This document shows, piece by piece, positions 10,277 through 36,925 of a stretch of 55,238 nucleotides of DNA. The stretch is from assembly GCF_026571515.1 (NCBI RefSeq), contig NW_026853223.1, positions 1 to 55,238 of the forward strand, written 5' to 3'. The first letter of the stretch is position 1, and every line of letters begins with the position of its first letter. Both the position numbers and the translations under genes were made by a program. Source of the DNA: Ruditapes philippinarum (taxonomy: Eukaryota). The notes below the pieces were generated by a model. It made no database searches. It was given only the letters and a program-made list of their open reading frames with translations, and was not told the origin of the DNA.

Positions 10277-12504
10277 TTGATTTTTTGTATTACATGAATG
10301 AGGCATCGACATTTTACAATGTTTTTTGATGCGATACAACAACCTTATTCTGCAATCACAATCCCAAATGTTTAAAACAGAATATTTTTTAAAGAATCAA
10401 TGGACTGTTTAGCTTTTGTTTGTACTAAACGTATATTTGTATTTATTAGAAACTTGTACTTGGGACACACATATAAGACGGGTTCCACAAATAAAATGAT
10501 AGACAGATTTACCCTTTGGAAATATTGTAATGGCACAACTTGTCAGCTCCTTGTGTGCCAAATAACATACTTGATAGTAGAACTACCTGTCCATGTAAAA
10601 ATATCCACTGGTATCTGCAAGTTTGGGAAGGTCACATAAATCTGTAGGCGCCACAAATACATGTATATGTCTTTCAACGAATTTAAGATATGAATTACTT
10701 ACACACGACAATGTTGAAAGTTAAACATCCTGTATACATCGTATCATTATTTGAACACCTATATTTTTGGCGAGTTTCGTTCCGAGGGTCATTGTGTATT
10801 TTTCAGTACCGACGAATGCCTTTTACTGGGGACCTCAGGCTTACAAGTTGTAGCCGACTCGACAATTACCGCAACAATCTAAGTTACTTCACATGTTAAT
10901 ACTAGCTTAATACGATTTTTATATCAAGTTACTTTCTTTGACTACAACCAATATGAATTTTGTTTCAACATTGTTACTGTCAATGTTGAACAAAATATAA
11001 TCGCCCAAAATATAAAGTAATGACACATTTTGTCCGTTGCTGGAAAAATGATGTCTCAGCAAGGCATTTTCGTGCAATCGCTGTCCGTTTTGGCAATATA
11101 CTGTAAACATGTAATTTACTGTGCACATTTATAAATCGCCTGGAAAACTACTAGATTATTTTTTTAGAAATACAAAGTCAGTCTCCAGAAAAGAAACAAT
11201 AAAGCAAAACATTAAACACTTACATACTCTGAATTATATGGCCAAGAACTTGAAGGAACCAACTATTAAAGTTTCTCATTGAAAATATTTTAGAACAACT
11301 GATTGAATCAAGTTTGTCTTTCCACAAAATATAGCCATTGATATATTATTTTATGATAATATTTCTATCATAATAGGCGATACTCATGTGTTAGAATTAC
11401 GTCATTTTAGGTGTAATGGCAAATAAGTAATATCTGTTTCAGAAAATTGCGTTCTTTGTGCAAATGTTTTCCAGGAAACCTGCTTGATATTTAAATGTTT
11501 GTTTTTTGTTTCTTTTCTAAAGAACATGTTAGAATATACATGTGATTTTTTTCAGTTTATATACAAAGGACGGATGAATGGCGACTGGTCTTTTTATTTA
11601 ATAAAACACGCTCTCTGCCAAGGTATCAAAATAAATATCACAGCAGCCGTAATCTAATAACGCCTTACCTTCGTTACCATGGTAACTACTTCGACGCTTA
11701 CCTCGGTTTTGTATATCGCAATTCACCGATGATCCTTTGTCGTCGTATGTGCGAAATATAAATATATCGTATATATATAATTTAATCATTTGCGACGCAG
11801 GAATATAGAGAATTATATGGTATACTAGTGAACTATGCGGTACGTATACTTTACATGTTTTTTCCTTTCTCATTCATCCTAAAATAATTTGGCATATAAT
11901 CTGGTAACTGTAATTGAATGCAAATTTTCAAATACCATCGAAATGAAAAGTATGCTCTTTTGATAATGATTATCATGTTGATGATGATGATGATGATGAT
12001 TATTATTTAAAATTATCATTACAATTCGAAGTCTTTTAATTAAATGCGCAGAACACAAATATGATGTTATTAATATCATCAAAATTATGTAACGAATATG
12101 AAAAGTTTGGCCGGAAGTTGAAAACAATGCTGGTAAACGCTTCTCTGGAGTTGAATTTAAAGTCAAAAGGCAGTCAGTACTTATTAAAATATATTAGGAT
12201 TTTATTTTGTTTGTTTGTTTGTTAATTTATTTCTAGCCAGCAATTATATTGATTGTAATTTTAGAAAATAACCATTTACATTAGCATGTAAGTATATCAT
12301 TGAATTATATTACAACAGTAAATGTTGTCTTTTCATTAAGATTATATATTAAGTTAATATAATTATTAATAATACATTAGATAATCAAGCAATTTACATG
12401 CGTGTTTTTAGAGACAAGACTTAAGCTCGTTGATATAATGATAAGTAAATTTATATATGTTCAAATAATGACTTTCAGAACGTATAGGTCTGAATGACAA
12501 CTAC

Positions 12505-13587
12505 ATGACAATGGATTCCAGTTATTGTGGACTCCATCTTCTGATGTGGGCTATTATTGTATTAAGTTTGGTTCACTCAGACGCTGTGTTGACAACAACC
12601 CAAATTGAATCTTTACATCAGGCATGCCCGGGATACGAAAATTGTTACAATACTGCAAGTGCTGCTTTATGTTGTTTACCATGCTCCTGTGATACTTCTG
12701 TTTGCATACACAAAGGTAACTGCTGCCCTGATATACAAACTACAAATCAAACTGAACAAATTGCAAATCAAACTGAACCAAACAAGAGTCAATCTGAATG
12801 CGTTACTACAACCATTAATTTGAATAAAAGTCAGAAACAAATGTCAAAATACGATGAAAAAGGTTCCAAGTCACACTTAGGAGTAACTATGGTAACAGGG
12901 TGTTTGCCAGCTATTAATGAAACGCGTTGTACGGAACCTGATGCAACAAAGTTTAACGAAAGCACTCCAGTATATGACTTCGACAATGGATTGACGTATA
13001 GAAATATTTTCTGTGCCCAGTGCAACAATATCAGTAACGACAACACTACTTACTTGGAACCATGGAAAGCTTTCATCACATGTTCTAAGGTGAATGTAAT
13101 TAAAGCAGACATATTATTGTTTCCTATTACAGCCGAGTCAGTTTTTACATACACTGCTACGACAAATTACCACGAATGTGGCATTGACTTCTTGCCGCCA
13201 AATGGAGCAGATGTGAAACAGGACTTCTGTTTCGAGGAAACAAACATTGTCAGAGTATGTCCAGATGAATTCAAGAACACCTCCGTACGAGCGGCATGTG
13301 GCGAGTTTTATATGCCTTATATAAGTGCTCAAGAAAACGAAACATTCGTATACGGAAACTACTTTTGCTATTTGTGTAATACATTCGACAGCGATAAGGA
13401 CAATCACACCTGTCCGTCTGATGTAGATATTTTTCTTCACGACGAAAATGAGTTGGTTGCTGAACTGAACAATGGTATGGGAGACGATTCACAGATTATT
13501 CCGCCATTGCTGGACGTAGAGCTTACACCTGCTAGTTATTTACCGTCTGGTGTGAGATGTGGAGAGCAGACATTTGACCCTTTCTTG
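12505..13587 (+). CDS. GPCR coding exon 1: signal peptide and Cys-rich (somatomedin-B-like) ectodomain
   Basis: Hydrophobic leader LHLLMWAIIVLSLVHS; CSCDTSVCIHKGNCCPD; TYRNIFCAQCN and YGNYFCYLCN repeats; many NxS/T sites; phase-0 donor TTG|GTAAGT at 13588. Confidence 0.88.
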
Positions 13588-13806
13588 GTAAGTTTATATA
13601 GTCATCTTCATGTTAGTAAATCGATAAATTGCTTGTCACAATTCAATTCATTTCTTAAATATTTTTTTTTAACTTTGCATGAACAGGAACATTTCAAGTG
13701 AGAATAAAATTTGAGGTCACTTTTTAAGTTTAAATTTGAATGTTTAAGGGCAAAAATATTGCCGATTTGTTGATATAACACTTGATGGACATTGTTGACA
13801 AAGTAA

Positions 13807-14570
13807 AACAAGAGCTGTCGGTAGGAATAGTAAATAAGAGTCTAGGTAATGTAGAAATTTCTAAGTTCAGAAGTAGCCATAATTATGTTTAAATCTTACT
13901 CGCACCTCCTCGGCCTTTCCGTCAAATTAAGGAGATAGACATCGAACATAATAGTTAGAATACACAGACCGGACTAACTAAACATGTACACATGGATGCA
14001 TGGAGTTGTTTATTCCAATATAGCGAGTAAATGTCCAACTTTATTAAGACAATTTATAGATATAAATGTAAACAGTACATTATTTTATATCTTATACTTG
14101 TAGAAACCGAAAGTAAAAATATCTACCTCCGGATTAGGTTATAATTTTTCATCAGTGGGAATTTATGAATTCATTGTGATTGTCAAACATATTTTCAATC
14201 ATAATAACCGAAGTAGACTTTCTTTTTCTTTTGATGTCAAATATATACATTCATTATACGTTATTAAAAATTATACCCTCTGTTTTTGTTTACATCTAAA
14301 ACCACGTGGTAGACCTACTTTAATCCGTATCAAGTCCGAGGTTAGTATGTCTAATAGCCGAGGTGTTCAAAATATATGGTACATGTAGAGTGCTCTACAG
14401 TAAGCCTTGGACAGCGACATTCTATCATGCTCTCAAATAAGTGTGTCAAGTTACAAAAGTTACAACCCATTCCCTTCAGTAGTTTTTAAGACTTAACCAA
14501 AGTGTCGCACCAAGGCCTGGGTGAGTACAGGCCTTGGGGGTCGCCCTATTCTTTGAATAGTCGCGACAGG
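13807..14570. mobile_element. degraded interspersed repeat (Helentron/HINE-like family) in GPCR intron
   Basis: Starts AAACAAGAGCTGTC and ends CCTATTCTTTGAATAGTCG; the same terminus occurs inverted at ~52655 (AGCTCGACTATTCGAAG). Family name is from recollection of bivalve repeats. Confidence 0.45.
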
Positions 14571-17500
14571 GTTGGCGAATATGGCATACATTTTGGTTAA
14601 TAGTCTTACCCCGGAATTAAGAATCTGAAAGAAGATTTTCACAGCTTTTCAGGGTTATAACTGTTACAAGTTGATTAAAAAGCGACTTTCAAGTTTATTG
14701 AATATATATCTGAGTTTTCATATTTACAATACAAAAACTTGAGACCAATACATATGTAATAGTAAACAATAATAAACAGTCACGTGAACATGTGAGGGGC
14801 AACACTATGAATAAATATATTAGATATACAATGTATTTGGACATATCAATAATGACCTAATGTAATACAAGAAAAGGAAAGAAAAAACCTTTATTTAAAT
14901 GTGTAGCTGTGCCTTGTTGAAAATTTGGCCTAATTATAGTTTTGGTGTTCAAGATAATTTTGTCAATTATCTAATTGCTATGCTTTTTGATAGGTCAATT
15001 TCTTTGGCCGTCAGTGACACGTGTTTTGTAAAATATATCAGTGTTATTGCACCGTGTATATTCAGTAACGCAGGAATGTGCAAATAACGCAGGAATTGTG
15101 CAAAAGTAAGGCAAAATTGTGCAATTTAGTGTCTGAAACATGCACCGCGATAAGTAATTGGGCCAACATTTTTCATTGCACACCAAATTGAATTGAAAGA
15201 AATTAATTAGAGCATACGGTTGCTGAGACATTTAACTTTAAACCTCATCAAAACAATTTCCATGAAAATGTTTATTTTTAAAGATCATTCGTGAAAATGA
15301 CGACCTAACTATCGTATTGATGGCGATTTTTAGTTTTGTTGGCATCTTTAAAAACTTACATATTACTTTATGACTTTTTATATGCGGTGTACCCGAGACA
15401 TTTTCCAATCTACTCGTGTCATATTACACTTAATTTAGACTATACACACCATTTTTACGAGGTAACGCTGAATTCGTGAATGGAGCACTGAAGCAACGTC
15501 GGTTATCTTATTAAACGTAGCTAAATCTTATTTTACCAACTTTCTTCTATTGTTATACAACACTTGTAGTTTGACAAATGTCTTAGGTATACAGGATATG
15601 AAAAAATATTGTTTTAAATGTGTTAAATGTACATATTTATTTGACGAAACACAAAAGTCACCTTCAAAACGGTAATCAGGTTGACTTTCTCACGACTGAT
15701 CAAAAGAAGTTAACACATTCCTGAAAAAAATTGTAATGCTGGTTTAAGTATAATGTCGTAGCGGCCGTATGCGCTCATTCATTTCTTTAAATTTGATTAA
15801 AAATAAAATATTTGGGTCCGTTTACTTACTGCGCTATTCGTTTTGGTAATAGTGTTTCACAGATTCGGCGTTACGGTTACATTATTTGCACATTCCTGCG
15901 TTACTGGATATTCACGGTGTACTGGGCCAGACAAATAATGTCATAATTTTCTGCTTTAAATTTGCAAGAAAATCGTGCAGATTTAACGAATATTCGCACG
16001 TGGTCTATCAATATGTTGTGCATGTCGAAGCAATGATTGTACCGAAATATTAGCCAGGAAAAAATCCCATATATGTCGAATTCTGGATAATATTTATCAA
16101 TTAGACAATTGTGATTTGGCAGTATAACTTTGGCATAATTATCCGTTATAAAGCTTAATTGATATGTATTGATATGTCTATAATTGGACAAATGAAATTT
16201 TTGCATCATGATCAGAATGAAAGCGAAGGATATAAATAAAATATGGTGTCCATATCTTTGTGTGAAAGGCAGCTCTGCATGCGTGCAATCCTCGCTTGGA
16301 CAAAAGAGTAGTATCAAGGATCGTATTATTAGATTAATTTCAGTGTTGTTATACTTTTCTTTTCCTTTAGAATAAATGATTCCAGCACATTTAGTGTTGA
16401 TAATTGAATATGTACCGCTTAAGTCGGTGTTATAGGGCATAAGATATGTTTCATTTTTTCATTATACCCATTAAACCGAGTTTGCAATTTTCATGTAAGT
16501 TATAGAATCAACAACTGTATAAGGATGTTCACCGTTGGTTAAATGAGCAACCGTTATGACAAGATTAGTACTTTTGGTCAATTAAACTATATGTCATTCC
16601 TGAAGGCCAAGATATACTGTATAATAGTTTTCAAATCGCCAACATGGTCTGTATATACATACTTTGTAGTCGTATTTCTCGTACTAGGAAAAGTTGTTAT
16701 CTTTTTATACAGGTTCAATAACAAATCAGGCATTGAGCATTTACTAACACTATTTCCTAGATTGAAGTGCAAAATTTAACCTTGTACGTACAGGGTATAT
16801 ATACCGTATATGTATAAACATTGGTTATTTTAATTTTGTCTTATCAACTGAAAACGCAATTACCTTTTTCTTTTCTTATAAATAAAATATTGTTCGTTTG
16901 TTCGTGTACGAATTGTTTTGTTCATCAAAAATATTATTATAATTGTTAACCTGTAATGTTGTTATAAATAAATTTTAGTAGAAATCCCGCCAAAAAAACC
17001 TAGGCAACCAGCCTAATTAGTGTCTTCTAAAAAAACACAGACTCAAATGAAAATTACATTTAATTCTATATTATTTATTTTAAAATACAATTTGTAAAAT
17101 ACTTAATCACTAAATGTTATTTTAACAGCAACAACCTCAACGAAAATCCTACTTTTATTCAGTTCTTCTCTGTGTGTTTTAAAAGAAGTCAATTTCGTGC
17201 TGGAGAAACACATTAAGTAAAATGTTACTTTTATATTTCACCCTAAACACCGAGAATGTTAATTATTACCAATACATACTCATTTAAACACTGGCCTTAA
17301 TGAGAATAGGCTTCAAACACGTACATACTTTACTCTGATTATTTCTTTCTTTCTTTTTGTTTCCTTGTGTTTTTTTTTTTTTTTTTTTTTTGGATATTGT
17401 CACATTTTCACTAATTGTCCCCTAATTTGTCACTTCACAGTTTTTATTCATGGTCACAAGAAATTGTAACTGTTGTACATTATTTTGATTGTTCTGTCAA

Positions 17501-17943
17501 ATGAAAAACACATTTAGTAAAGTTTACTAACGTGCGAATACGAAATAAGAAACTTGGAATTGCGTCAGACCGTTTATTGAATATGCTACACTGTAAAATG
17601 ACATGTTTAATTATCATTATTTTTTTCTATCATTTTAATTTTCTATAAGGTTTTTATAATTGTAAGTTATGAAATAATCATAAATTCTAACAATGTTGTA
17701 ACTTGGCTATAACACCTGATGCCTCACAATATTAGCTAAACTATCTGAGGGATAACATAAATGAAATCAATGTGCATCTCACTTTGCAAAACCAATACAA
17801 GTCAAGCGTTCAAAAACACATTCAAATCATCTTCATTTTATGGAAACCATAGTATCTTAGAGGAAAGATCATTTTACATATAAAAACATCAATATTAAAT
17901 TTACAGAAGATTATCTTTGTCTGTAACAACGCTTATATGATAG

Positions 17944-17990
17944 AAGAGAGAGAGAGACAGAGAGAGTGACAGACATACAGACAGACAGAC
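17944..17990. repeat. (AG)n/(ACAG)n microsatellite
   Basis: Directly visible. Confidence 0.9.
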
Positions 17991-18169
17991 TTGCAGGAAA
18001 ACCACACGAGTCTAGAAATTCTGAATGTTTCTGCAGATATAATTTGCAGACGTTATTTTAAACATTTCATTTTCGCACATTATATAGAAAGAAAACACAA
18101 TCCATCCATAGAAAATAACATTGTTATTTATTTCATAGTACGTGATTATATTTTTCATTTATATTTTAG

Positions 18170-20116
18170 GAGAAATGCAGGGATTGGTATTGTCCTAATG
18201 GACGTCAGCGTGTCGGCGTCAACTGCATTCCTATTTACAAAGACGTCATCAAAGCGAAATACAGTATATCTCTAAAGCTTATCCCAGACAGTTTGTCAAA
18301 AGACGTTTTCGAGAAAACAAACAAAACAATCTTCACTGATGATGTTTTAGCGCAGATGTTTGGATTTGACAATCAGATCACTACAGAAATTATTGTTCTT
18401 TCTATAACAGATGATAACTCTTACATTTATACATTTATACTGGTAAGCATAGATCGGAATTCAGTCAACAAAAGTATAATTTTTGATGAAACAACGTATG
18501 ATAGAGATATAGCTATCCTCACGGAGAACGGAACCGTTGGTGTCCACGTGGAGTTTTCTGTAGGTATCAAAATAGAATTAAGTACATACCCGCTTAGCGA
18601 TATTGTTATTATAGATCTTATTAAGTATACTGCTTTAATAAACATTTACAGGGTCGATGTTGAGGCCATTAAATCTTCATTCAAACATATGCAAATAAAC
18701 AAACTGTCATTTTGCACACAAGTGCTTCTTCATAGAAGCGAAATTCACGATTACATTGACATCTTTGACATAATCAAACCTGACACTCGTATTAATACCG
18801 GCGAGTTTGCAAGAACCACGAACTATGAACAGGTACGCATGTGCCTATCCGACTATCTCCGCGACGCCGGTAAATATCTCGAAGAGAAACGCAAGGGTCA
18901 GGTTTACTCACCACAGGCTATCGTTTCGGTTATTTGTAATATGATGTCAATTGCCGGTCTTTTAATCACTATCTTAACGTATGTCGTTTTCGACGAGCTG
19001 CGTTCTATTCCCGGAAAGAATAACCTAATGTTATCAGTACATCTTCTTTTCGCGCAGGTTTTATATCAGTTTGGCATGGATCAGACGGAGACCCCAAAGC
19101 TTTGTATCGCTCTAGGTGTTTTCATTCATTTATTTTGGCTTACTGCAATTTTCTGGATGAACGCATGCACTTTGCATATGTTTCGGACGTTTGTAACTGG
19201 ACAGAGTTATCGTTCCGTAAGAGCATTAGATCCGCAAGTCTGTTGTTATGCATTGTATTGCTATGGCATTGCTATTTCGATGGTAGCTATAAACATCACA
19301 GTTTCGATGTATAGATCCAATGGACAGGAAATCGGGTACGGTGGACGTGTATGTTATATATCGAACCCGGTTATGGTTGGTTGGGTGTTTGCCCTGCCTG
19401 TTGGCGTGATAATTATCCTTAACATGGGATTCTTTTTCGCCGTCGTATATCAAATATCAGCATCCACTATGCGTAGACGTGGAAAATCGACCGACCGCGC
19501 CAATACAGTGATATACATGAAATTATCATCCCTCACTGGAGTTACGTGGATTTTTGGCTACTTGTATCTATGGACCGATTTTACGCCCCTTGAATACATT
19601 TTCATTGTACTGAATGCAGGGCAGGGAGTATTCATATTCATTTCATTTATCTGTACGCAACGAATCACGAAACTGTACTGGAATTTGTTCCGGAAACATT
19701 GCCGGTCGTGTAGGAAGAACCGTTCGTGCGTATGCATATGTGCAAACAAGATGGACGAGTCGGAAGCTAATGCTGTAGAAATGAACACCGCAAAAATTTC
19801 GCTTACCGCAGCCTCGATCACAAAGGGATTTCATTCGCGCAAGCGCAAAGACGAAAGTAAATCCGGTTCCAATAACAAGACGCACTCGTCTTCAGATATT
19901 ATAAAGGATAGTTCTAAAATTGCTAAGCAGTTGTGCAACCCTGTTGCCAATGGTAATGGTCACGTAGAAAGCAACAGTGAAATTAACATGGATTTTGTAA
20001 ATTATAATGCTGGAGGGGTGGTCAGCGAGGGTCTTCAAAACGGACTTCAAAACATCGCAATCGCAGCCATTGGTTTACATGATATAGAGTTTATACCAGC
20101 CAAACATGGCGAATGA
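18170..20116 (+). CDS. GPCR coding exon 2: family-B (Methuselah-like/adhesion-like) 7TM receptor; joined protein ~1009 aa
   Basis: Acceptor ttttag|GAG at 18170 is in frame with ORF 18293 (FDPFL|EKCRDWYCPNG). 7TM motifs: TYVVFDELRSIPGKN, CIALGVFIHLFWL..FWMN, YGGRVCYI, FALPVG..ILN, KLSSLTGVTWIFG, LNAGQGVFIF. Confidence 0.93.
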   Translation, partial: EKCRDWYCPNGRQRVGVNCIPIYKDVIKAKYSISLKLIPDSLSKDVFEKTNKTIFTDDVLAQMFGFDNQITTEIIVLSITDDNSYIYTFILVSIDRNSVNKSIIFDETTYDRDIAILTENGTVGVHVEFSVGIKIELSTYPLSDIVIIDLIKYTALINIYRVDVEAIKSSFKHMQINKLSFCTQVLLHRSEIHDYIDIFDIIKPDTRINTGEFARTTNYEQVRMCLSDYLRDAGKYLEEKRKGQVYSPQAIVSVICNMMSIAGLLITILTYVVFDELRSIPGKNNLMLSVHLLFAQVLYQFGMDQTETPKLCIALGVFIHLFWLTAIFWMNACTLHMFRTFVTGQSYRSVRALDPQVCCYALYCYGIAISMVAINITVSMYRSNGQEIGYGGRVCYISNPVMVGWVFALPVGVIIILNMGFFFAVVYQISASTMRRRGKSTDRANTVIYMKLSSLTGVTWIFGYLYLWTDFTPLEYIFIVLNAGQGVFIFISFICTQRITKLYWNLFRKHCRSCRKNRSCVCICANKMDESEANAVEMNTAKISLTAASITKGFHSRKRKDESKSGSNNKTHSSSDIIKDSSKIAKQLCNPVANGNGHVESNSEINMDFVNYNAGGVVSEGLQNGLQNIAIAAIGLHDIEFIPAKHGE

Positions 20117-24063: not shown

Positions 24064-25172
24064 TCAGCGGATGCTTAAACATATTTTAACAATCCATTTA
24101 TTTCCATGAAGAACCGGACAGTTACAGTGTTCGTTACTTATATATTCTGAACCATCTCTAAACATGTTTTCATAAAGCAAAGCACTCCCTTTTTCTAATC
24201 TTACAGTGAGTCCTAATTTCTGAAAAATTTCGAACCCTCCGTCATCTACATTTGTTAATTGAAAAACAGCCGAAAAAATGCATTCTCTTTCAAAATAATT
24301 TACTTGTTGATCAGAAGAATCATTAATTCCAAACCCTCCAATCCCGTAATTAATCGCTCGAGCTCTGAAACTGATTAAGTCTTTGGTTCTTGAAAGCGCT
24401 AATATTTTTTGTTCAATTAATTTATATGACGTTACATGTGATAAATCAATATCTATAAAAGCCACAGCTTTTCCGTCTTCTACGTAAATCTTTTTTGTTA
24501 CATAAGAAGATGATTGTTCCTTGACAATCCTACGAATTGAATCTAGAGTTTTATCAGCTCTTACAATATGATGAAGAATAGCTAGACGTGGGCGATCTGA
24601 AATAATTTCTACCTTAACTGGATTAATAATCAACGCAGCTTGGTTATTATGCACTAGTTTACAATGGAGGTTCCTTTTCCGTGTTTTTATAACGGGTGAT
24701 TTCAATATTGCTTCCGTACAGAGATACAGAACATTTGAATTCACACCTTCTTGCGAATGGACCGCCAGCTTCATGTGTTTACAATCATGCACGGAGAAAG
24801 TCCGAATGCAAGAATTTAATGCAGATGATATTTTCTTGGCGTAAGTATTATTTTTACTATTCAATATGTTATAGATATGAATACTTTCCCGTGAGCAAAG
24901 ACATTTCTTTGTAACTAATGTTTTTGACATAAATTCAAGTTTATCAATATGATTTTCTTGGTCTATTTTAGCATATAAACCACTGTTGATATTTGCTAAG
25001 AATGTCAATGCGTGTTTAAAAGCACTTAGTCCGCTTTCTGAATCTGGTTTAATTGTTTGCACGATGTCAAGAATTTCATCAACAGTTAGATGCCTGGAAA
25101 CCTTGCCATTGATTTCACCGCGAAATATATCATTCCATTTTAGATTGTAGGCTGTTTGAATCCTGTTGATGC
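24064..25172 (-). CDS. prolyl 4-hydroxylase alpha-subunit-like, exon 2 (divergent 2OG-Fe(II) domain)
   Basis: INRIQTAYNL, LIINPVKVEIISDRP, NYGIGG, LTNVDDGGFEIFQKLG..V..EKGSA, EHCNCPVLHGNKW parallel P4HA motifs; phase-1 acceptor aatttag|GC at 25172. Confidence 0.9.
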
Positions 25173-25666
25173 CTAAATTAAGTAAGGACATGCTAGAAAA
25201 AAGTTATACATGACTATATTTTATAGGTTAGATAATGCACGTCTATTAAAAGATGCATAATGCATTATTTTATTTTGTTACACCTCGCATGACACTTGCA
25301 AAAGCAAAGCACTGCATGGATGGTGATTAATAAAAATATTATAGGCTATAAATATAAAAATCTAATTTAAAAAGTTGTGTTAAACCTTCAGGTGTGAATT
25401 TTTAAAATCGTAATATTGCGGCTTCACCTTTCAAATTTCTGTTGTTTTTTTTGAAATTGATGAAATTGCATTAATTCAAATTGGTACAAGTGCTTTGATA
25501 AGCTGAATTGTCACCATTATTAATCATGGTGACAAAGACAATAAATACGCCATAAACTTTAAGTGCGTCTTTTTCGATTTAAGCGAGACAGACATGTACC
25601 ATTCAATAAGAAGTATATGCCGCAATGATTAAAATGTCACAAACATTAAAAAAAACAGTTACATAC

Positions 25667-26129
25667 CCAGTGCTGCATTATGTAAATCCTTTGTTTTTGG
25701 CAGAACCACCATGCGTTTCTGAATCATCTTTTCTAGAAACGATGAAGTGTTATATTTTCCCTGTATAAGAATCTGTTTAGAGACGTTGTAATATTTCATC
25801 AAATGTTTCTGCATTCTGTAAACATGCAATTGATTTTGAAAAAGTTCGTTTCTATTTTGCTGCACATAGCCTTGTGTCTCGTGAATATCTATGTCTCTGT
25901 CACTCTGAAATATATCTACCATTTCTGCATGTTTGACAACTTCCTTCAAACAATTTACTCTAAATGTCTCTTCTTGAATAAATTGCTGTATAGCATTATC
26001 ATGTATTTTTGTATCAGTGCTCTTAATATAAGACAACAAGTTACCTATATTTTCAACAGATGCGGCAATATGCTGCTGTGTATATCCTCTGATCCTGATC
26101 AAAAATAGGAGCACTCCCCAAAACATCAT
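25667..26129 (-). CDS. prolyl 4-hydroxylase alpha-subunit-like, exon 1 (signal peptide and P4Ha N-terminal domain); joined protein ~523 aa
   Basis: MMFWGVLLFLI leader; NQLHVYRMQKHL (cf. NPxNAYxLxKRL); LPKTKDLHNAALG|INRIQTAY (cf. FPxxEDLxGAAxALxRLQDTY); donor CTGG|GTATGT. Confidence 0.88.
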
Positions 26130-26847
26130 CTTGACAATTTTGGAATAAGTCAGTCAATACGTTATGGTCTATACATACCAATTGGCATTTTGATGAAATG
26201 CGGAAACAAACTGTGCAGTAACAAATGTTTAAATTTTATTCCAACAAATTATGTGCTTCTGTTCCAAATAGTTAAACACCAACATTATAAATATGCTCCG
26301 ACAAGATTTCCCTTTTCCTTTCAACTCAATTCTTATCACAATTACAGCAATTTAAATATATCCATTTAATCTTTATTGTGAAATTACTTTTTTAAAACTT
26401 TTATATTGACTATATACTTAATGATTGTCGAGTCCACTTTTTTGTAGTGTAATTAAACACTGCATCACATCCGAGCAATAGTCAATAATAACATAAATTG
26501 AAAACACGTTATCACAGTAACACAAACAAATTATTGAGTTTATACTTTTAAATAAAAATCTTGCCTATATACTTTCCACTATGTTTCAATTAAAGAAACA
26601 ATTCATATTGTTCATTCACCACAAGTAATTACTTAACATATGTTACCTTTCTAACAGGCAAGTTTGTATCAATAATTTAAACAAATCTTTTTATATTGAT
26701 ATTTTATGCTTTATTAATATATACACTGAAATATTTGACTTTGATAAAAAATATCACTTGGAGTTTTAAGGAATAACAAACAAACAAATAAGATTTATTT
26801 CAGTATTTGAACTCATCTGGTTTATTTTATATTTATCTAAAATGAAT

Positions 26848-27843
26848 TATATCTACCATTTCGTCATGTTTGACAACGTCTTTCAGACAGTTTAGTCTAA
26901 ATGACTCTTCTTGAATAAACTGCTGTATAGCATTATTATGTATTTTCATATCAGTTGTCTTGATATAAGACAACAAGTTACCTATATTTTCAACAGATGC
27001 GGCAATATGCTGCTGTGTATATAATCTAACTCCCCAAAACATCATCTTGACAATTTTGGAATAAGTCAGTCAATACGTTATGGTCTATACATACCAACTG
27101 GCATTGTGATAAAATGCGGAAACAAACTGTGCAGTTACAAATGTTTAAATTTTATTCCAACAAATTATGTGCTTCTGTTACAAATAGTTAAACACCAACA
27201 TTATAAATATGCTCCGACAAGATTTCCCTTTTCCTTTCAACGCAATCCGTATCACAATTAAAGCAATTTAAACATATCCATTTAAGCTTTATTGTGAAAT
27301 TACTTTTTGAAACTTTTATATTGATTATATACTTTATTATTGTCGAGTCCACTTCATTTGACTATCTAGAATAAGTTTCATGTGAAAAAAAGATCGGCAC
27401 ACTTCTCCGATGTAATGCAATTAATTTAATAAGGTTGTCCCCAATCAAAGTATATTGAACTATATGCTACTACTTGTTTGTAGTGTAATTAAACAATGCA
27501 TTACATCCGAGCAATAATCAATAATAACATAAATTGAAAACAAGTTATCTAGTTTAAACTTTTCAATAAAAGTGTTGCCTTTACACTTTTCACCATGTAT
27601 AAATTTAAGAAACAATTCATATTGTTAATTCATCACAAGTAATTACTAAACATATGTTACCTTTCTAACAGACAAGTTTGTATCAATAATTAAAACCAAT
27701 CTTTTTATATTGATATTTTATGCTTTATTAATATATACGCTGAAAATATGTGACTTTGATAAAAAAAATATCATTTGGAGGTTTAAAGAAAAACAAACAA
27801 ACATCGAATAAGATAGATTTATTTCAGTAATTGAACTCATCTT
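26848..27843 (-). pseudogene. partial tandem duplicate of the P4HA-like upstream region and 5' part of exon 1
   Basis: Co-linear with 25911-26820; the ORF 27045-26833 has a deleted signal h-region (MMFWGVRLYTQQ) and stops after ~70 aa. Confidence 0.88.
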
Positions 27844-28418
27844 CTTTATTATACTTTGATTTTATAAAATTCATAACATATCACAGTATACAGAAACAAC
27901 CCAACTTTAGCATGATTTCAAATGAGCATAAAAAAGCTGGAGTGAAATGAACCTGATTCCTGTTCAAAACTGAAATATTATTTTTGTTTTCCTTTGACAT
28001 GTATCATTAGTCTTTTAATACAAACATGTTAGTAAAATAGTTAAAAACAAATACATTTTTAAGAAATTTAATTTAAATCAATTAATATACATGTATTCAC
28101 AAATATAGAATCTCTCCTTTCAAGATCGATAGAGAGGTGTGTCATTTATATGTTTTCTTTACTTACAGGTTAATATTTCTTATAAGTTATTATATGCCTT
28201 TATAACATTGTTTTGCACCACTCCAAATACGGTTAAGTACTGGTACAAGGCAGATAATGTGTTTTATATAGATTGCTGTTATATTGAACAAAATAACTCA
28301 GTATTCTAAAAAATGAGAAGAAAAACAGACAGCTTTATTATTAGACCATATTATTATTATTAAGCACAATCGGTCTTAATATTTTCAGCACTTTAGATAA
28401 AAATGCCTTAATTACATT

Positions 28419-29035
28419 TTATAATTTTGTGCAGTTTTCCTCTAATCCAAGTAAACCGAACTCTGAGTTTATTTCGCTGTCAAAATCATCTTCGGGTATT
28501 GAACCCAACCCACCAGAAAACCCGCTATCAGCGGTGCATCCATTTATTGCAATCTTGCAAGCTTCTGGTGGGGATGGAGAAACTACTTTTGTCAGGTCAG
28601 AGATTAAAGATCTTATTTCGCTCAAAGACTTTTTCAAATCATTGAATTCTTGCCGGTGCATTTGTTCCATATTTTTAATAAGAGCTCTTTGACATTTTAG
28701 TTCTTTTTCGATATCAAAATCTTGATTTCTAAGATGATGTACCATGTTTGTTAGATCAGTGAAATTACGCTTTAATTCATTAATGTCCTTTTGTTGAGCA
28801 ATGGTCAATTCCTTTAAAGCACAGCTGTGCAAATCGGCCTTTCCCTCAATTACTTTTATATGGTGTCCAAGTTCATTTATAACTCTGGTAGTTTTACACA
28901 TATCATATGTGCTGCTTACTCTGTTATGAATTGTTTCGTAATGCATTTCATGACGATATCTACTGTTGCTATGGTGATTAGCCTCGTGGTGAAACTTCTT
29001 GTGGTTGCATTTAACTTTCTTCAGATCAGTCTCGT
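28419..29035 (-). CDS. tandem-CARD protein, last exon (coiled coil and acidic tail)
   Basis: Phase-1 acceptor ctttcttttaaag|AC is in frame with ORF 28946-28419; heptad-like LKELTIAQQKDINELKRNFTDLTNMVHHL...FNDLKKSLSEIRSLISDL. Confidence 0.8.
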
Positions 29036-29193
29036 CTTTAAAAGAAAGATATACATATAGCTGAAATACATCTGTTTATTATGAAATATTACGACAGCTT
29101 GTGTTTATTTCGAGATTTCAATACTTTGAAAATAAGACATTATCTGCATAAAGATTAATGGAAAGGAAATAATAAAACGTCGGTAGTCCATAC

Positions 29194-29544
29194 CTGTTAC
29201 GGGTGACATCTGACGATCCTCTAAAAACGACAATAACTCAGCAACATCTCCCAGGCCACACTTTTTCAGTATGTCTGGTAACCGTTGCACCCACTCATGA
29301 GATTTTGTTGGTATAATGTTAAATATTTTATGAGCAGCCGCTAAAAGACCGTTGTTCCTTTTCTCTGATTCAACAATCTCTTTGTCTGCTTCATTCAATA
29401 GTTCTGCCTCAAACAGCAAATCTAAAAATTCATCAACATGGATGTTGTAGACAAGCTGTCTTGACATAAGAGCAAGTAATTTTCTTTTATCTTCTGTATC
29501 ATTTTCTGTCTCTGAGTTAAGCAGCTGGACGATCGCACTATAAC
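29194..29544 (-). CDS. tandem-CARD protein, CARD2 exon
   Basis: KRKLLALMSRQLVYNIHVDEFLDLLFEAELLNEADKEIVESEKRNNGLLAAAHKIF...HEWVQRLPDILKKCG is a CARD-fold pattern of RIG-I/MDA5 type; acceptor ctacag|GT, donor ACAG|GTATGG. Confidence 0.85.
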
Positions 29545-30056
29545 CTGTAGACATAGAAAAAACTTAGATAAAATAACACATTAGTTTCAATGTCCTCTTT
29601 TCAATATTATCTGAAAAAGGAAGGTTCAATTTTTCTTACGTAATCAAGTAAAGTTTTGAATATATGTTACATTGAAGGTCAAGGTGCATCATAAGACACT
29701 CGTATATGCAGATTTTAAGCACCATTTGTTTATTTATACTTATGGTAGAAATTACTATAGTTACTATAGCGATGGGCACTTTCTTCAAGGTGAGTGCTAC
29801 CGGACACTACGAGTATTTATTAATCACTTTATGTCACAAGTAATTATCTATTTCAATTAATGAACATACGGCGTTTGAGCACGACTGACAGAAACAAAAT
29901 TGTGATGAACTAAATTTGTCACAGGATTTCGAAATTTGATATTGTATGATTAACACTTCCAGAGAACCAAGGTCTGTTTAAGCAGCAATTAAATGCTATA
30001 ATTGTGTATCATCAGATATTTGTATATCTAATTAAGTATCTTTTTATGATACCGAC

Positions 30057-30807
30057 CATTATTATCCAAAGCTTCTATAAAGTTCTGCCATTTCCCTTGT
30101 TCAGGTGAGTGTCTGATATGTCCAAGTAACATGTCTACTGGTCGGAGACCATCAACCGGACACTTTTGGAACATTTGCCAGTACAGAGTTCATAATTTTT
30201 AACCTAGAGACCAAAAAATTTGACACAGTTCAGCTAGGTTCTTCTCCTAACTAACAAACTAGTTTGTTTATTTCTGATTGTAATGACACTTTCATCTGAG
30301 GCTCGACAAGGAGGGTATCAAAATTACCTAAATTGTCAACACTACAGTACCATGTGTCCGGACAGCTATGTGCATGATATGATTTAATTCAGATAAAAGC
30401 TTGGGTGTTTTGATTTTTGATTTGTAACATGATATACAGTATGTCAGCAACAAATGCTGAACTTTTGGATATTCTATTATTCACTCTGCGAATGATTATA
30501 GCTGGTAATTGAGGTCAGGCATTGCTTTCTTTACCCCCGAATTTCAACGTCAACATTCTTGAAATATAAATTAAAATATTACCATTTACGGAGGTTGAAA
30601 TACATTTATTTACTTAATTTTAAAAGAAACATGCACTTATTGTTGATAAAAAGTGACTGACAACCACCGAACAAAGAAAATACTAAATTAAGCATTTTCG
30701 GGGCCGTCCGGATTTAGTGGTTGTCCGGTTTTTGTGGTCCCCAACCAGTACAGCTGCTTGCCGTGATTCTTTTGATCTTCTCTCTATTTCTTCTTTGTAA
30801 ACATCGT
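30057..30807 (-). CDS. tandem-CARD protein, CARD1 second exon, interrupted by a TIR element (30138-30748)
   Basis: Removing the insert and one TA gives DDVYKEEIERRSKESRQAAV-DMLLGHIRHSPEQGKWQNFIEALDNNG in one frame; acceptor ttccctag|AC, donor AATG|GTCGGT, both phase 1. Confidence 0.82.
30138..30748. mobile_element. 611-bp non-autonomous TIR DNA transposon with TA target duplication (Tc1/mariner-type MITE)
   Basis: TA at 30136-37 and 30749-50; left end CTGGTCGGAGACCATCAACCGGACA, right end reverse complement CTGGTTGGGGACCACAAAAACCGGACA. Confidence 0.88.
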
Positions 30808-31207
30808 CTAGGGAAAATGATAAAATATTTGTTTTAGACATAAAAAAATTAAGAAACCATTTCGCCAGAAGCTGCCAAATATTAGCGAAAATGAGAAGCG
30901 CTTTTGTCAATTTTAGCAACTACTCTCCAACTTCTTATTTTAAATGTGTAATAAAAAGTCTTATCAAAATTAAATTCAAAACAAGTATGAATTATAAAAG
31001 ATATATATTAACAGTTAAATCAGACGAAAATCATTCAAATGAAATAATAATTCTCAGACGTTCCATTCACAGAGGAATGCTCATCAGTTAAAGCTATTGA
31101 CACGTTCATATACCATACGATTATTAGTATAAGATATATACTCATTTATACTAGATCTCGTAAATGATTCCCTATAAATCAGAATAATTCGTATAGAAAT
31201 TCTTTAC

Positions 31208-31430
31208 CAATACAGTGAATATCTTTTAAGAGGTCCTCAACGCGCAGATCCATTTGTAATCTTTTCTTGTAAACGTCTACCATGAACTCAATTTGTTGAG
31301 GTCGACACACGCTGCAATTTACACGCATGTAATCCTTAGAACTAGTGTGTCCACTCGCAGAAGTGTCTGCTGTAAACGCCGAATCTTTGGATGAATTTGT
31401 TCGTTCACTCATCCTTGGGAATGACCCCCT
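31208..31430 (-). CDS. tandem-CARD protein, linker and CARD1 first exon
   Basis: RGSFPRMSERT...QQIEFMVDVYKKRLQMDLRVEDLLKDIHCI; acceptor ttattag|AGG (phase 0), donor ATTG|GTAAAG (phase 1). Confidence 0.8.
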
Positions 31431-32245
31431 CTAATAACACAATAAAAGAAATAAATTTAAAAGTGATATAGTCCATAATGGAAGGTCTTTAATATCATGA
31501 CTTATAATGTTGTTTGCATAAAATATCATAGGCGACAACAAACCAAGAAAGAATTGAATATGGATATTGATGGCGAGGATGAGATACATGATTCGATAAG
31601 ACAAAAACATACAGCAGTTTAAAATGTAGAACATGTTAACATGTGTATGTATTATTCATATGAATAATCATACTAAATCACTATGGACATTTTCAACAAA
31701 TATGTTTCATAAGAATATCTCCAAATGATACATTCCTTGAGTTTTAATCAATATTTGAAATACTTTTGGAAAATATATCAATTGCATACGAATCAACTAT
31801 GTTTAAATGATCTAACATATTATATTAATTTCAATATCAATTCAACGTGTGGAATCATAGATAAATTGTATAAAAACTGTTGTATAATAACTGTTGTAAA
31901 TTGTATAATAACTGACAATCTTTGACAAAAGGCATACACGAATAGGGGTGTATGGGAAAGAAACCAGAGGACCGGGGAGGGGTGGGGTTGATCGTGGTGG
32001 CAAACTAGGGTAAAGAGGATAGTTTGGGACAAAAATAAGAAAGGACACAACAAATTATATCACAATAGAATGTAGTAATAAACAATACATACATCTTATG
32101 AAACTTATAGGGGCACCGCCTTGGAACGATAGCCGCAAAGTCTTTTCTGGGGTGTTTAAACATGTTAATGGTGCACAAAATCTCACTAACATGATCCTGT
32201 TAAACGGGTAGTGCAAATAGCATGAGAGGTCATGTGTTAACTTAC

Positions 32246-32308
32246 CCGGAAGTATTCAGGATTATCCCATCCTATTGTATGCTCGTCAGCAAGTGCGACT
32301 GCATGTGG
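32246..32308 (-). CDS. tandem-CARD protein, 63-nt exon PHAVALADEHTIGWDNPEYFR
   Basis: tattttag|CCA...CGG|gtaagt; phase 0-0, open frame. Confidence 0.72.
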
Positions 32309-32914
32309 CTAAAATATAAATAACACATGTAGAGATAATTATACAAATTCTATGTCTAAAATTTAATATGCACTAGTATATTAATACTTATTCGGTTAAT
32401 TTATTCATGATTCATTGTCAATTCTAGTATTTATGTCGTGCTTTATATATGTCAGCGTTTGTATTCGTGTGTATCATTTTATCAGCTAAGTATCAGTAGG
32501 CGGTTACTCTTTTTTAACTAGCATCAGGGGCTAAATGTCTGCTCATTAAAAATTTTATATGAAAAAATAATGTACAAAACTAGTTATTTTCAAACGATAT
32601 AAAGAAAAATAAGAGTTCACTTTTAAACAGTGATTTCATTCTCATTCTAAATCAAAGTCAAATAAAAAAACCTTAAAAGCCGACAAACATGGCCAAATTG
32701 AAACTTGTAATCTCCGTTTGATGAAGTGGTAGTTGGTGCAACATACAGACAGTTCTCTCGACACCAGCTTGACCTGAAGTCTTCATTTTTAATTAAGAAT
32801 CATCCAAATGTGAGATCAAGGTGAGATACAGCGGTGATCAAAGAACTTCCAATGTGATAATTCTTTCCATTGTATACATTTACTCAGTTAAAACAATTAC
32901 GAAACTATAGTTAC

Positions 32915-32977
32915 CTTTCGTACAGATGGCTTTGGATGAATTGTAGCATACACATCAACATCATCGCTTAAAGACAT
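32915..32977 (-). CDS. tandem-CARD protein, 63-nt exon MSLSDDVDVYATIHPKPSVRK
   Basis: tttctacag|ATG...AAG|gtaact; phase 0-0. Confidence 0.72.
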
Positions 32978-33805
32978 CTGTAGAAATAAAAGATATTTAA
33001 AATAGCATTTCTCTTTTACAAAAAAAAAAGAATATGAACGTGATGAATAATAAGCTGTTTGACAGCCTGCCTAGGAACAATGGGATGGCAGAACTGTGTT
33101 TTGGTAAATTAAATGCGGTTGACTGCCGTGTTTCTGCTTGGATGCTCTTACGCATGAAAGTTGATGGAACAATGTTTAAAAAATGTTATTTTTGGAATAT
33201 TGTATACGTTTCGGTAAGAAAAAATCATTTCAGTATAGTTTTGTTACCATCAGCACATTTATTGAAACAAGACATATTAGAATTAATTTTTTAATATCAA
33301 ATTTCTCCAGTGTTGTGCTCAGCTCTCAAAAGAATAATCATTATGCAATCATTTTCACAGTAGTATCTGAAGGTTATAATACATGTTGTTTTAACAGGAG
33401 AAAAAAAGAATATGGTTATAAAAATGCACTGATAATAAATATCCACTTATTAGACCAATCCTGCACTTTGGTTCTGTCCGCTGGTGGTCTTAATAGAGGG
33501 TTTTTACTGCACTATCAAATACTAATGTTGCTTTCCAAATTTGCCATTTTGTCATAATTATTATAAAGGATAATTTCTATTTTTATTAATTTATGTGCAA
33601 ATGGCCTAGAAAATAATCTGCATTTGACCTCTTAAAAAGTTTTCACTTATATCTGGTTTATATTTTTTTCATTACCAGGCATACTCAATCATTTCATTAA
33701 TGTACCAATAGTTATCAAATAGCAGGATGAGCTTAAACGATGAAAACAAATAAAGCACCCTCATCCCAAGTACAACGGTTTTGATTGCAATTTGTGAAGT
33801 TATGT

Positions 33806-34000
33806 TGGCGGCGTGGCCGAGTTATTAATGCGATTAGTAATCTAAGGATTGTTCAAATGCTGTCAGGGGCAAGCCATTGTTTCCTTGACCGAGAAACTTT
33901 ACATTCATTGCTTACCACTGGCTGGTTCCAGGAACGGATTCGAGAGTGTAATAATAAGCTGAAAGCTTCCAAGACAATCGAACCAAAATAAATTTGCATA
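33806..34000 (+). mobile_element. degraded tRNA-derived SINE (CORE-like)
   Basis: GGCGGCGTGGCCGAG head; TTTCCTTGACCGAGAAACTTTAC...TTGCTTACCACTGGCTGGTTCCAGGAACGGATTCGAG body resembles CORE-SINEs. Confidence 0.65.
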
Positions 34001-34023
34001 AACTAATTTGTCGTGAAACATAC

Positions 34024-34185
34024 ATTGTCATTGGTCTCAGCTTCTCCGCCATCATTTGCCAATCCTGTGCATGTGCCTTTTATTCCATTTATGTCGGTTC
34101 TAGACATAGACTGTTCGCTTTGATGATGATCTCTTACATTTAGAACTTCCAGTGTTGTTAAATAGTCTGGGTTTTCGTAAGAATT
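34024..34185 (-). CDS. tandem-CARD protein, 162-nt exon NSYENPDYLTT...ETNDN
   Basis: ttgtttatag|AAT...AAT|gtatgt; phase 0-0, 54 open codons. Confidence 0.72.
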
Positions 34186-34690
34186 CTATAAACAAGAGAA
34201 AAGATTATCGTAATTATGTTGCATCACTACCTCCCCTGATCTGTACAGAAATCGAATAATTAAGGGGAGATCACCGCATGGAGATTGGTAAATGATTACG
34301 CTTGAATATTTTATGTATCAGACGAAATTATTGAAGAGAAGATCAAAATCTGACATTATAATGTGAAGAAATAACGAGTTATTTTAAAATGTGTTATAGA
34401 TTAATCGACTTTTATAATATGTGTGAATGAAATGCAACATTAAATTTGTAGAAGTAAATAGACCTTGGTTTAAAATCAGAAATGTGTACATAAATTGATG
34501 AACAAGGGTACAGTAGAGATATATGTTGCTGCTCATTATAAGAGTATAAAAGGCTCGAGAAGTTGATGTCGCCCTTTCACAAAATCTGATTTCATTCCAT
34601 AAAAGGCGCCGCGCTTCGGCGCGGACGCCAATTATGTAAATCCGCCATGAAAATCAGGTGATCCATAAACAATGTATTTATCTAGTTTAC

Positions 34691-34747
34691 CTTTAATGTT
34701 GCCGACTGACCGCTTTGAAGTCTACGAGGAAAGGTCGGGCATGGTGA
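34691..34747 (-). CDS. tandem-CARD protein, 57-nt exon SPCPTFPRRLQSGQSATLK
   Basis: atttcag|TCA...AAG|gtaaac; phase 0-0. Confidence 0.68.
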
Positions 34748-35221
34748 CTGAAATATCATGTATGAAACAAAAGTGAAAAAGTTAGTGTATTAAGGTTTTT
34801 GTATGCACAGTGTATGCATTTAAAATTAAATAATTTTAATGTGTTAATATTTCACTAGTAAATGCTTTGGTGAGACAGTCTGGTGCTGTTGATTTCACAT
34901 ATTCTTTAAACCTGGGACATAATGAAATATTTTTTTACGCTCAGCGTATCTCTTTCACAGTTTTACCAGTTTTACGAGAATTTGATTTCTCTCAGAAATG
35001 GTATGACCTTATAAAATGCCAAAATTAGTACATTGGTAAAAATCATATAAATTCTGACTAGATTTATGTTGAAATCGTGATATGGTAAATGTTGCAGTGA
35101 AATGATTACTCTTTTAAACTGTATATACCTGAACATTATCATCATTTGAAGAAAATAAGACCAGCGTTTGAGTCTTCATTTTTAGAAAATAACAAAGAAA
35201 ACTGAATATACATCGACTTAC

Positions 35222-35371
35222 AGGGGGATTCTCTTTAATATCAGGAATTTCATTAGGAATCTCCTCTATGTCATGGGTAACATTTCTAACACCTTGTAAC
35301 GATGCAGGATCCCAACCGCTTATGACACTGACACCATAATCTTGACATTGCTGGTAGCGACTGGCCCTCAG
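35222..35371 (-). CDS. tandem-CARD protein, 150-nt exon LRASRYQQ...KENPP
   Basis: aatttcag|CTG...CCT|gtaagt; 50 open codons. Confidence 0.65.
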
Positions 35372-36270
35372 CTGAAATTTATAACGGTATTCAAAATTAA
35401 TTCTCCTCTCTTTTATTACACTTTATTTCCCCTTTCCATAGATTTTAAATTGAATAGAAAATTATCTTTACACAGTCATTACATTTTATACAATAATTCA
35501 AACATAGTAAATATAGGTCATGTTTAAACATAGGTTAAGCACATGAATTTATGACATGCATCGTAATATATACACACATTTACAAATAGTCCTAACTATC
35601 ATTTTCTACACCCATTTAGAAGAAATTTTTGCATAGTTGTATATTGAAGTAATCTGTAAAATTATATTTTCTTAGAATTCTAAAAATATCAGGTATAAAT
35701 TCTTTCTGAATAATGGAATTTCCATTTATAGCAAATCTAAGATCGAAAATTTGTTTTGCCAGTAGATGTATTTGCGTTGTTTATAGTTTTTCGAGTAAAC
35801 GTAATTTTCTTTTGACAATATTTGACCACACTGAAGGCCAACCAAGCATACTTAATGCGATGTCCGTTCTTGTTCGTTGACTTGTTTGGCACAGAATCTT
35901 AAAAACATTTCTACAATACTTAAATCATTCAATGCCATGCTATTCCCTATTTCAAAGCCATTAAGTGTAGTAGGGAAAACTATTTTTCAGTCATATTTGC
36001 AAGAATCATTGAATTTATTTAAGAGATTTCATTTCTTAAGTCCAATAGTGAAAAGGCAACCTCGGACTTCTGAGCACAAGTTTCGATTAAATTGGTACAT
36101 TGTTGTAATGGACCAACTAGTTTTAGATTCTTTGACGCTATTTGAATCATTAGAGGAATGTGTGTATGTTCCTGTCAAAAACTTGCTGTTTTCTTTATTT
36201 TCATGAATAGGAATACACAAGAACTATTTGATAAATTACTAGCTTAAACATTTACAAAACCTCCAACATA

Positions 36271-36328
36271 CCTGTCTACTGCTAGAAATGTTACCTTTCT
36301 TCTTCTGTTGTGAAAAATGATTTCCCAT
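36271..36328 (-). CDS. putative first coding exon of the tandem-CARD protein (MGNHFSQQKKKG...)
   Basis: Acceptor ttgtag then AAAATGG start; donors AAAG|GTAACA (after 36295) or CAG|GTATGT (after 36271). Probable next exon at ~36171-36061; the exact path to 35371 is ambiguous. Confidence 0.5.
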
Positions 36329-36415: not shown

Positions 36416-36925
36416 TTCTGTGTGTCAGCGTGTGTTAGAAGATCCCGGGTACTAGTGTGTATTCTGTATATCAGCGTGTGATGGAAGATCCTGGGTACTA
36501 GTGTGTATTTTGTGGGTCAGTGTGTTATTGAAGATCCCGGTAATTGTGTGTATTCTGTGTGTCAGCATGTGACGGAGAACCCAGAAACTTGTCTGTATTC
36601 TGTGTGTCAGCGTGTGATGGAAGATCCCGGGTATAAGAATGTATTTTGTGTGTTAGCGTGACGGAAGATCCCGAGTACTAGTGTTTTCTGTGTGTCAGTG
36701 TGTTATTGAAGATCCCGGTACTTGTGTGTTTTCTGTGTATCAGCGTGTAACGGAAGATCCCAGGAATTTGTGTGTATCTGTGTGTCAGTGTGTGATTGAA
36801 GATCCCGGATACTTGTGTGTATTCTTTGTGTCGGTGTGTGACGGAAGATCACGGGTTCTTGTTTGTATTCTATGTGCAGCGTGTTACTGAAGATCGCGGG
36901 TACTTGTTTGTATTCGATGCATGTC
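36416..36925. repeat. minisatellite, ~46-bp unit, ~11 copies
   Basis: Unit ~TTCTGTGTGTCAGCGTGTGACGGAAGATCCCGGGTACTTGTGTGTA, head-to-tail, no spacers. Confidence 0.93.

Follow-up and report, generated by a model that had tools for sequence, protein, structure and literature searches.

What does a 611-bp insert do in the middle of a coding exon of a clam gene, and is it an intron, a transposon insertion, or an error of assembly? The window (55,238 nt of Ruditapes philippinarum contig NW_026853223.1) holds a minus-strand gene whose first CARD is split by this insert. We conclude that a young MITE copy very probably sits at a duplicated TA in exon 8, with other chromosomes lacking it, and that the filled allele is likely null.

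The interrupted gene encodes a tandem-CARD protein

The host gene has the following parts:
28419..36328, minus strand: coding span, ten exons and nine introns
36328-36272, 35371-35222, 34747-34691, 34185-34024, 32977-32915, and 32308-32246, minus strand: exons 1-6, from joints in RNA contigs
31208..31430, minus strand: exon 7, start of CARD1, with a phase-1 donor in frame with the terminal AGs of the element
30751..30807, minus strand: 5' part of exon 8, middle of CARD1, acceptor confirmed by RNA contigs
30057..30135, minus strand: 3' part of exon 8, donor at 30056 confirmed by RNA contigs
29194..29544, minus strand: exon 9, CARD2 (Pfam CARD_2, E 1.2e-14, above the cut-off)
28419..29035, minus strand: exon 10, coiled coil and stop

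All nine introns occur as joints in the RNA contigs of run X15, and eight of the nine in those of X16. When 613 nt are removed, exon 8 measures 138 nt and the gene encodes 626 aa in an unbroken frame, as expected by a sequence-only reading of the locus, which had held that precise removal restores the frame. The closest named full-length relative of the host protein, found in a full HMMER search, is the Mercenaria mercenaria orthologue XP_045172599.2, which aligns over 640 columns at 42% identity with no break at the insertion site. This orthologue (642 aa) has two CARD_2 stretches and neither a DExD/H helicase nor a C-terminal RNA-binding domain; in its structure model, the N-terminus is disordered, the CARDs account for twelve helices, and there is a long coiled coil. 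In that model, the insertion point falls inside a confidently predicted CARD1 helix (orthologue 284-297).

The N-terminus of the host-type protein carries tyrosine motifs. The named relatives are bivalve proteins labelled "uncharacterized" or "CARD domain-containing"; an atlas search confirmed CARD only, and word-index protein searches returned nothing beyond the query. Judged from the domain type, a role in immune signalling is likely. Thirteen paralogue loci were compared at the insertion site: nine have a match spanning it, two are open through it, and two have no exon-8 match in the DNA examined. Two of the CARD-gene paralogues lie in tandem on contig C3784 (L033 and L035); a single additional A near the start of the exon-8 homologue of L035 reflects either a frameshift or a homopolymer error. 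The assembly contains no second, empty haplotype of the host gene: after the gene itself, the best CARD2 matches share 24-39% identity.

Two more high-copy repeats lie in introns of the host gene (34545-34632 and ~33720-33950), with depths of ~1200 and ~120 in runs X23/X24. Just upstream of the gene start, an array of degenerate ~42-bp tandem units occupies 36420-36910.

The insert is a short non-coding element between two copies of TA

Read along the minus strand, the order is exon, TA, 611 bases, TA, exon, and the element begins with CTGG and ends with CCAG. Its parts are:
30138..30748, minus strand: MITE, 611 bp, non-coding, longest stop-free stretch 52 codons over six frames
30749..30750, no strand: upstream copy of the TA target site, which completes the Val278 codon; single TA at the empty site
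30136..30137, no strand: downstream copy of the TA target site, paired with the upstream TA; single TA at the empty site
30735..30748, minus strand: left terminal inverted repeat (TIR), 14-bp core with a 12/14 match, containing a GT at 30745
30138..30151, minus strand: right TIR, ending in CAG, which together with the TA and the next G gives two AGs 3 nt apart (30138 and 30135)

The terminal 16-mers, TA included, are complementary at 14 of 16 positions (88%), which none of 20,000 shuffles reached, and the similarity of the left TIR extends to ~28 bp with a small indel. The sequence-only reading had described a 611-bp element with imperfect TIRs and a TA duplication in the CARD1 exon, splitting the codon run GCA GCT GTA / GAC ATG TTA; both the element and the split run are as it described them. 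The 613-nt skip at the empty site leaves one TA and is formally equal to a TA-less insertion, in which an ACTGG-ended element lies between T and A.

The element belongs to a large and homogeneous family

A search of the same assembly (1.41 Gb) returned 1501 candidate copies. The 40 that were scored are all 94-100% identical to the element, and 38 of them cover the full 615 bases of the query. Exact left-end 14-mers occur 596 times genome-wide and are preceded by TA in 569 cases, compared with counts of 0 and 2 for the reversed controls; exact right ends with TA number 191. TA is present at both ends in 28 of 30 fetched copies, with variable neighbouring bases. One flank is common to nine of the 30 loci, where the copy lies inside a larger repeat, and another to two others; the flanks are otherwise unrelated and fall into about 21 classes, or independent sites. 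A genome-wide count of copies and of their TA duplications had been proposed beforehand as a check. The window copy is a young member of a high-copy MITE family. It falls in a young 14-copy clade (support 100/100) and differs by six substitutions from its nearest fetched relative. The element shows the properties that define MITEs, namely TIRs, short length, no coding capacity, many homogeneous dispersed copies, and a target duplication visible against the empty site. The open frame across the empty site spans 24-69 codons at 26 of 29 family loci and 92-134 codons at the other three, which include the window locus. The family may already be catalogued.

Nine of the 14 youngest copies (L003, L004, L006, and L008-L013) have identical flanks, with the MITE inside a larger repeat that has internal inverted blocks. 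In the tree, the independent insertion L005 pairs with the nested copy L010 (support 99/96), so copies carried as passengers by this repeat may be a source of new insertions. A different 2.2-kb repeat (L053-L058, copies 95-98% alike) holds ~160 bp of a diverged MITE left end. A 735-bp look-alike, considered as a longer family member, proved to be a fragment inside this 2.2-kb repeat and was rejected.

A strict TA target is typical of Tc1/mariner elements, and TA at 569 of the 596 left ends agrees with this. Most Tc1 elements found in this analysis have CAG-type ends, and the ends of this element are CTGG. An autonomous partner with the same ends was found at none of the 30 DDE_3 loci fetched (of 150 matches) and none of the 30 DDE_1 loci fetched (of 149 matches). 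Pairing of the first 100 left and right ends listed gave eight stretches for examination, which contained only nested or diverged copies; longer copies of the element are nested insertions. No partner transposase was found among the 60 of 299 transposase matches fetched, so the putative superfamily assignment is based on the target. We infer that a Tc1/mariner-type transposase, supplied in trans, would have cut and pasted the element into exon 8.

Sequencing runs contain the empty site

Four of the 24 public runs listed under the same species label, from three studies, were compared with the window. The sequence-only reading had proposed genotyping by reads, with an empty site encoding AAVDMLL, and this precise site is found in three of the four runs: the joint 30135>30749, which skips 613 nt, occurs in a contig of X15 (depth 62), in three reads of X24, and in one read of X23. 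The support amounts to four raw reads and one contig from at most three samples. Position 30105 is covered by one read in X23 and three in X24, equal to the numbers of joint reads. X16 has no empty-site joint among the joints listed; its piece appears to break off at the TAC that both alleles share, consistent with an empty site.

Runs X23 and X24 are labelled RNA-Seq and behave as genomic DNA, since neither has a spliced read at any of the nine introns; their depth is driven by repeats and, read as DNA, implies about 230-240 copies of the element. The 613-nt skip has four possible placements, which read GT..CA, TA..AG, AC..GT, and CT..TA, and none is GT..AG. No GT-AG splice can therefore make the empty-site joint, so the insertion is a polymorphism and not an intron, and the joint comes from chromosomes that lack the element.

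At two window positions, 29223 (L412S) and 30105 (P289S), all four runs differ from the window; at the first of them, the Mercenaria orthologue shares the Ser. These may be replacements private to the filled haplotype.

The filled allele is predicted to be null

If the native exon-8 splice sites stay in use, the 613 extra bases would be kept in the message, and read-through would lead to an early stop:
30683..30685, minus strand: premature TAG on read-through, codon 300, product of 299 aa

On read-through, 21 residues are added before the stop at the 22nd codon, in line with the earlier count of about 22 codons. The filled allele is likely null because 980 nt separate this stop, at codon 300, from the last exon junction downstream. 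Messages with such early stops are subject to decay. The filled-allele message would be degraded, or would yield a 299-aa stub with half of CARD1. Two AATAAA motifs on the minus strand of the element (30605..30610 and 30267-30272) may lead to early polyadenylation of this message. The filled allele probably remains rare or is carried in heterozygotes. The sequence-only reading had left two branches, a recent insertion that makes a null allele in this haplotype or an insert that is spliced out. The first is supported by the young multi-copy element, the empty AAV-DML site, the unbroken orthologue, and the 11 of 13 paralogue loci that are unbroken.

Alternative explanations

An old ordinary intron at this position would account for the GT just before the element and the AG at its end. 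It is already refuted, and its chance is practically nil: the element is multi-copy, a GT-AG excision does not keep the frame, no break occurs at this position in the orthologue or in 11 of 13 paralogue loci, and the empty site is present in DNA-like reads. A single-copy insert at a conserved intron of relatives, named in advance as the result that would overturn the transposon reading, is thus not what we found. The filled junctions are known from the assembly alone and all four runs are consistent with the empty site, so a repeat copy misplaced into the exon by the assembly has to be weighed too. We rate this as very improbable, given that both element ends are complete, that the TA is exactly duplicated, and that the insert, six substitutions away from its nearest fetched relative, is no collapsed duplicate of any copy examined.

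The remaining alternatives accept the young MITE insertion and let the gene escape it by splicing. As the sequence-only reading had stated, the terminal AGs combined with phase-0 donors disrupt the frame. Its proposal of intronisation relied on an acceptor inside the element:
30163..30164, minus strand: weak internal AG (AAG, 5/11 pyrimidines), in frame with the donor at 30751 (+8 aa)
One part of the proposal holds on paper, where splicing from 30751 to 30163 keeps the frame with eight added residues. Pairs of this AG with donors at 30754, 30757, or 30745 keep it too, which would give a full-length protein with 6-10 extra CARD1 residues, and in other eukaryotes introns do arise from TIR elements that duplicate their target, according to the accessible text of 10.1101/2022.06.06.494994. 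The other part does not hold: no joint at 30163, 30751, or 30745 is present among the 15 of 21 joints listed, and the sites are weaker than the nine real ones. Each of the nine real donors has a G at -1, at +5, or at both; donor 30751 (GCT|GTACTG) has none at either position, and the acceptor at 30163 falls below all real acceptors, which have 6-10 pyrimidines in 11. The terminal GT and AG of the family leave five extra bases in both orientations, and the added residues would include two prolines and lie within a predicted helix. We regard intronisation as having only a slight chance. Partial rescue by altered splicing, which the sequence-only reading had missed, could take two other routes. 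Skipping of exon 8 (138 nt) gives 580 aa, and splicing from the intron-7 donor to the terminal AGs of the element gives 607 or 606 aa; all three products are in frame and lose 46, 19, or 20 aa of CARD1, respectively. With CARD2 and the coiled coil retained, their activity could differ from that of the full protein. The terminal AGs (7/11 pyrimidines) lie within the range of real acceptors, and exon 8 grows from 138 to 751 nt with the insert. Given these 7 pyrimidines and the weakness of the 30751 donor and the 30163 acceptor, the two deletion routes are the more plausible leaks, though both destroy CARD1: one and a half to three of its modelled helices would be removed. The native acceptor (9/11) is intact and upstream, and no in-frame escape joint of any kind is present among the 15 of 21 joints listed for the four runs, none of which was seen to carry the insert. 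Such a rescue is improbable in our judgement.

Consequences and neighbouring features

The preferred reading, a segregating MITE copy that likely inactivates one allele, describes variation that is ordinary for bivalves; a polymorphic MITE insertion in an exon is a feature of a known kind. As it stands, it matters little, being one more segregating insertion in a group where such insertions are reported to be common. What it does provide is a likely natural knock-out allele, together with a PCR marker, for a conserved, as yet uncharacterised tandem-CARD gene. Gene models built on this assembly will also omit or break up a gene that other animals carry intact. Its importance would be greater only if carriers splice around the insert.

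Elsewhere in the window, a ~1-kb tandem duplication seen by eye (~25900-27850) lies upstream of a neighbouring gene and includes part of it; the last exon of this gene (24064-25203) presumably encodes a prolyl 4-hydroxylase-type domain. Two long plus-strand frames at 12472-20116 look like an adhesion-type seven-transmembrane receptor.

Comparison with known systems

Stowaway-like is the plant name for Tc1/mariner-type MITEs with a TA target duplication. The clam element resembles such MITEs in being short and non-coding, with TIRs, a TA duplication, hundreds of near-identical copies, and presence or absence between chromosomes. It differs from them in its CTGG ends, in a small TGGT..ACCA palindrome at each terminus, and in that no partner transposase was found among the 60 loci fetched. 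The link between Stowaway and mariner is drawn in the available part of PMC6881990. For bivalves, the part of PMC10294476 at hand describes MITEs and TcMar elements as abundant and TcMar as the richest DDE superfamily, and the accessible text on oysters reports that transposable element insertions segregate, most of them in single individuals (10.64898/2026.02.10.705023). In contrast to those polymorphic oyster elements, the clam insert lies in a coding exon; the words "exon" and "coding" are absent from the text of the oyster paper.

Introners with TIRs and target duplications have been described, some of which add residues (10.1101/2022.06.06.494994, in the text available). The clam element is like them in its TIRs, target duplication, and GT and AG near the ends. 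Unlike them, it does not keep the frame: splicing at its own ends leaves five extra bases (+5 nt, or -1/-4 here), the precise skip has no GT..AG placement, and no spliced product was seen. The ends of the element do carry GT and CAG signals in both orientations. That it is a near-introner, with an in-frame acceptor that in carriers makes a one-CARD isoform out of a two-CARD adaptor or adds eight residues, we consider unlikely by a wide measure; if true, carriers would express a bivalve innate-immune protein in a splice form that a segregating transposon created.

The two CARDs of the orthologue match those of MDA5 (7dni; E 5.9e-6 by sequence, 1.8e-7 by fold) and RIG-I. Because the orthologue has no helicase, the host protein is not a RIG-I-like receptor, despite its tandem RIG-I-type CARDs; unlike RIG-I and MDA5, it combines them with a disordered tyrosine-motif N-terminus and a C-terminal coiled coil.
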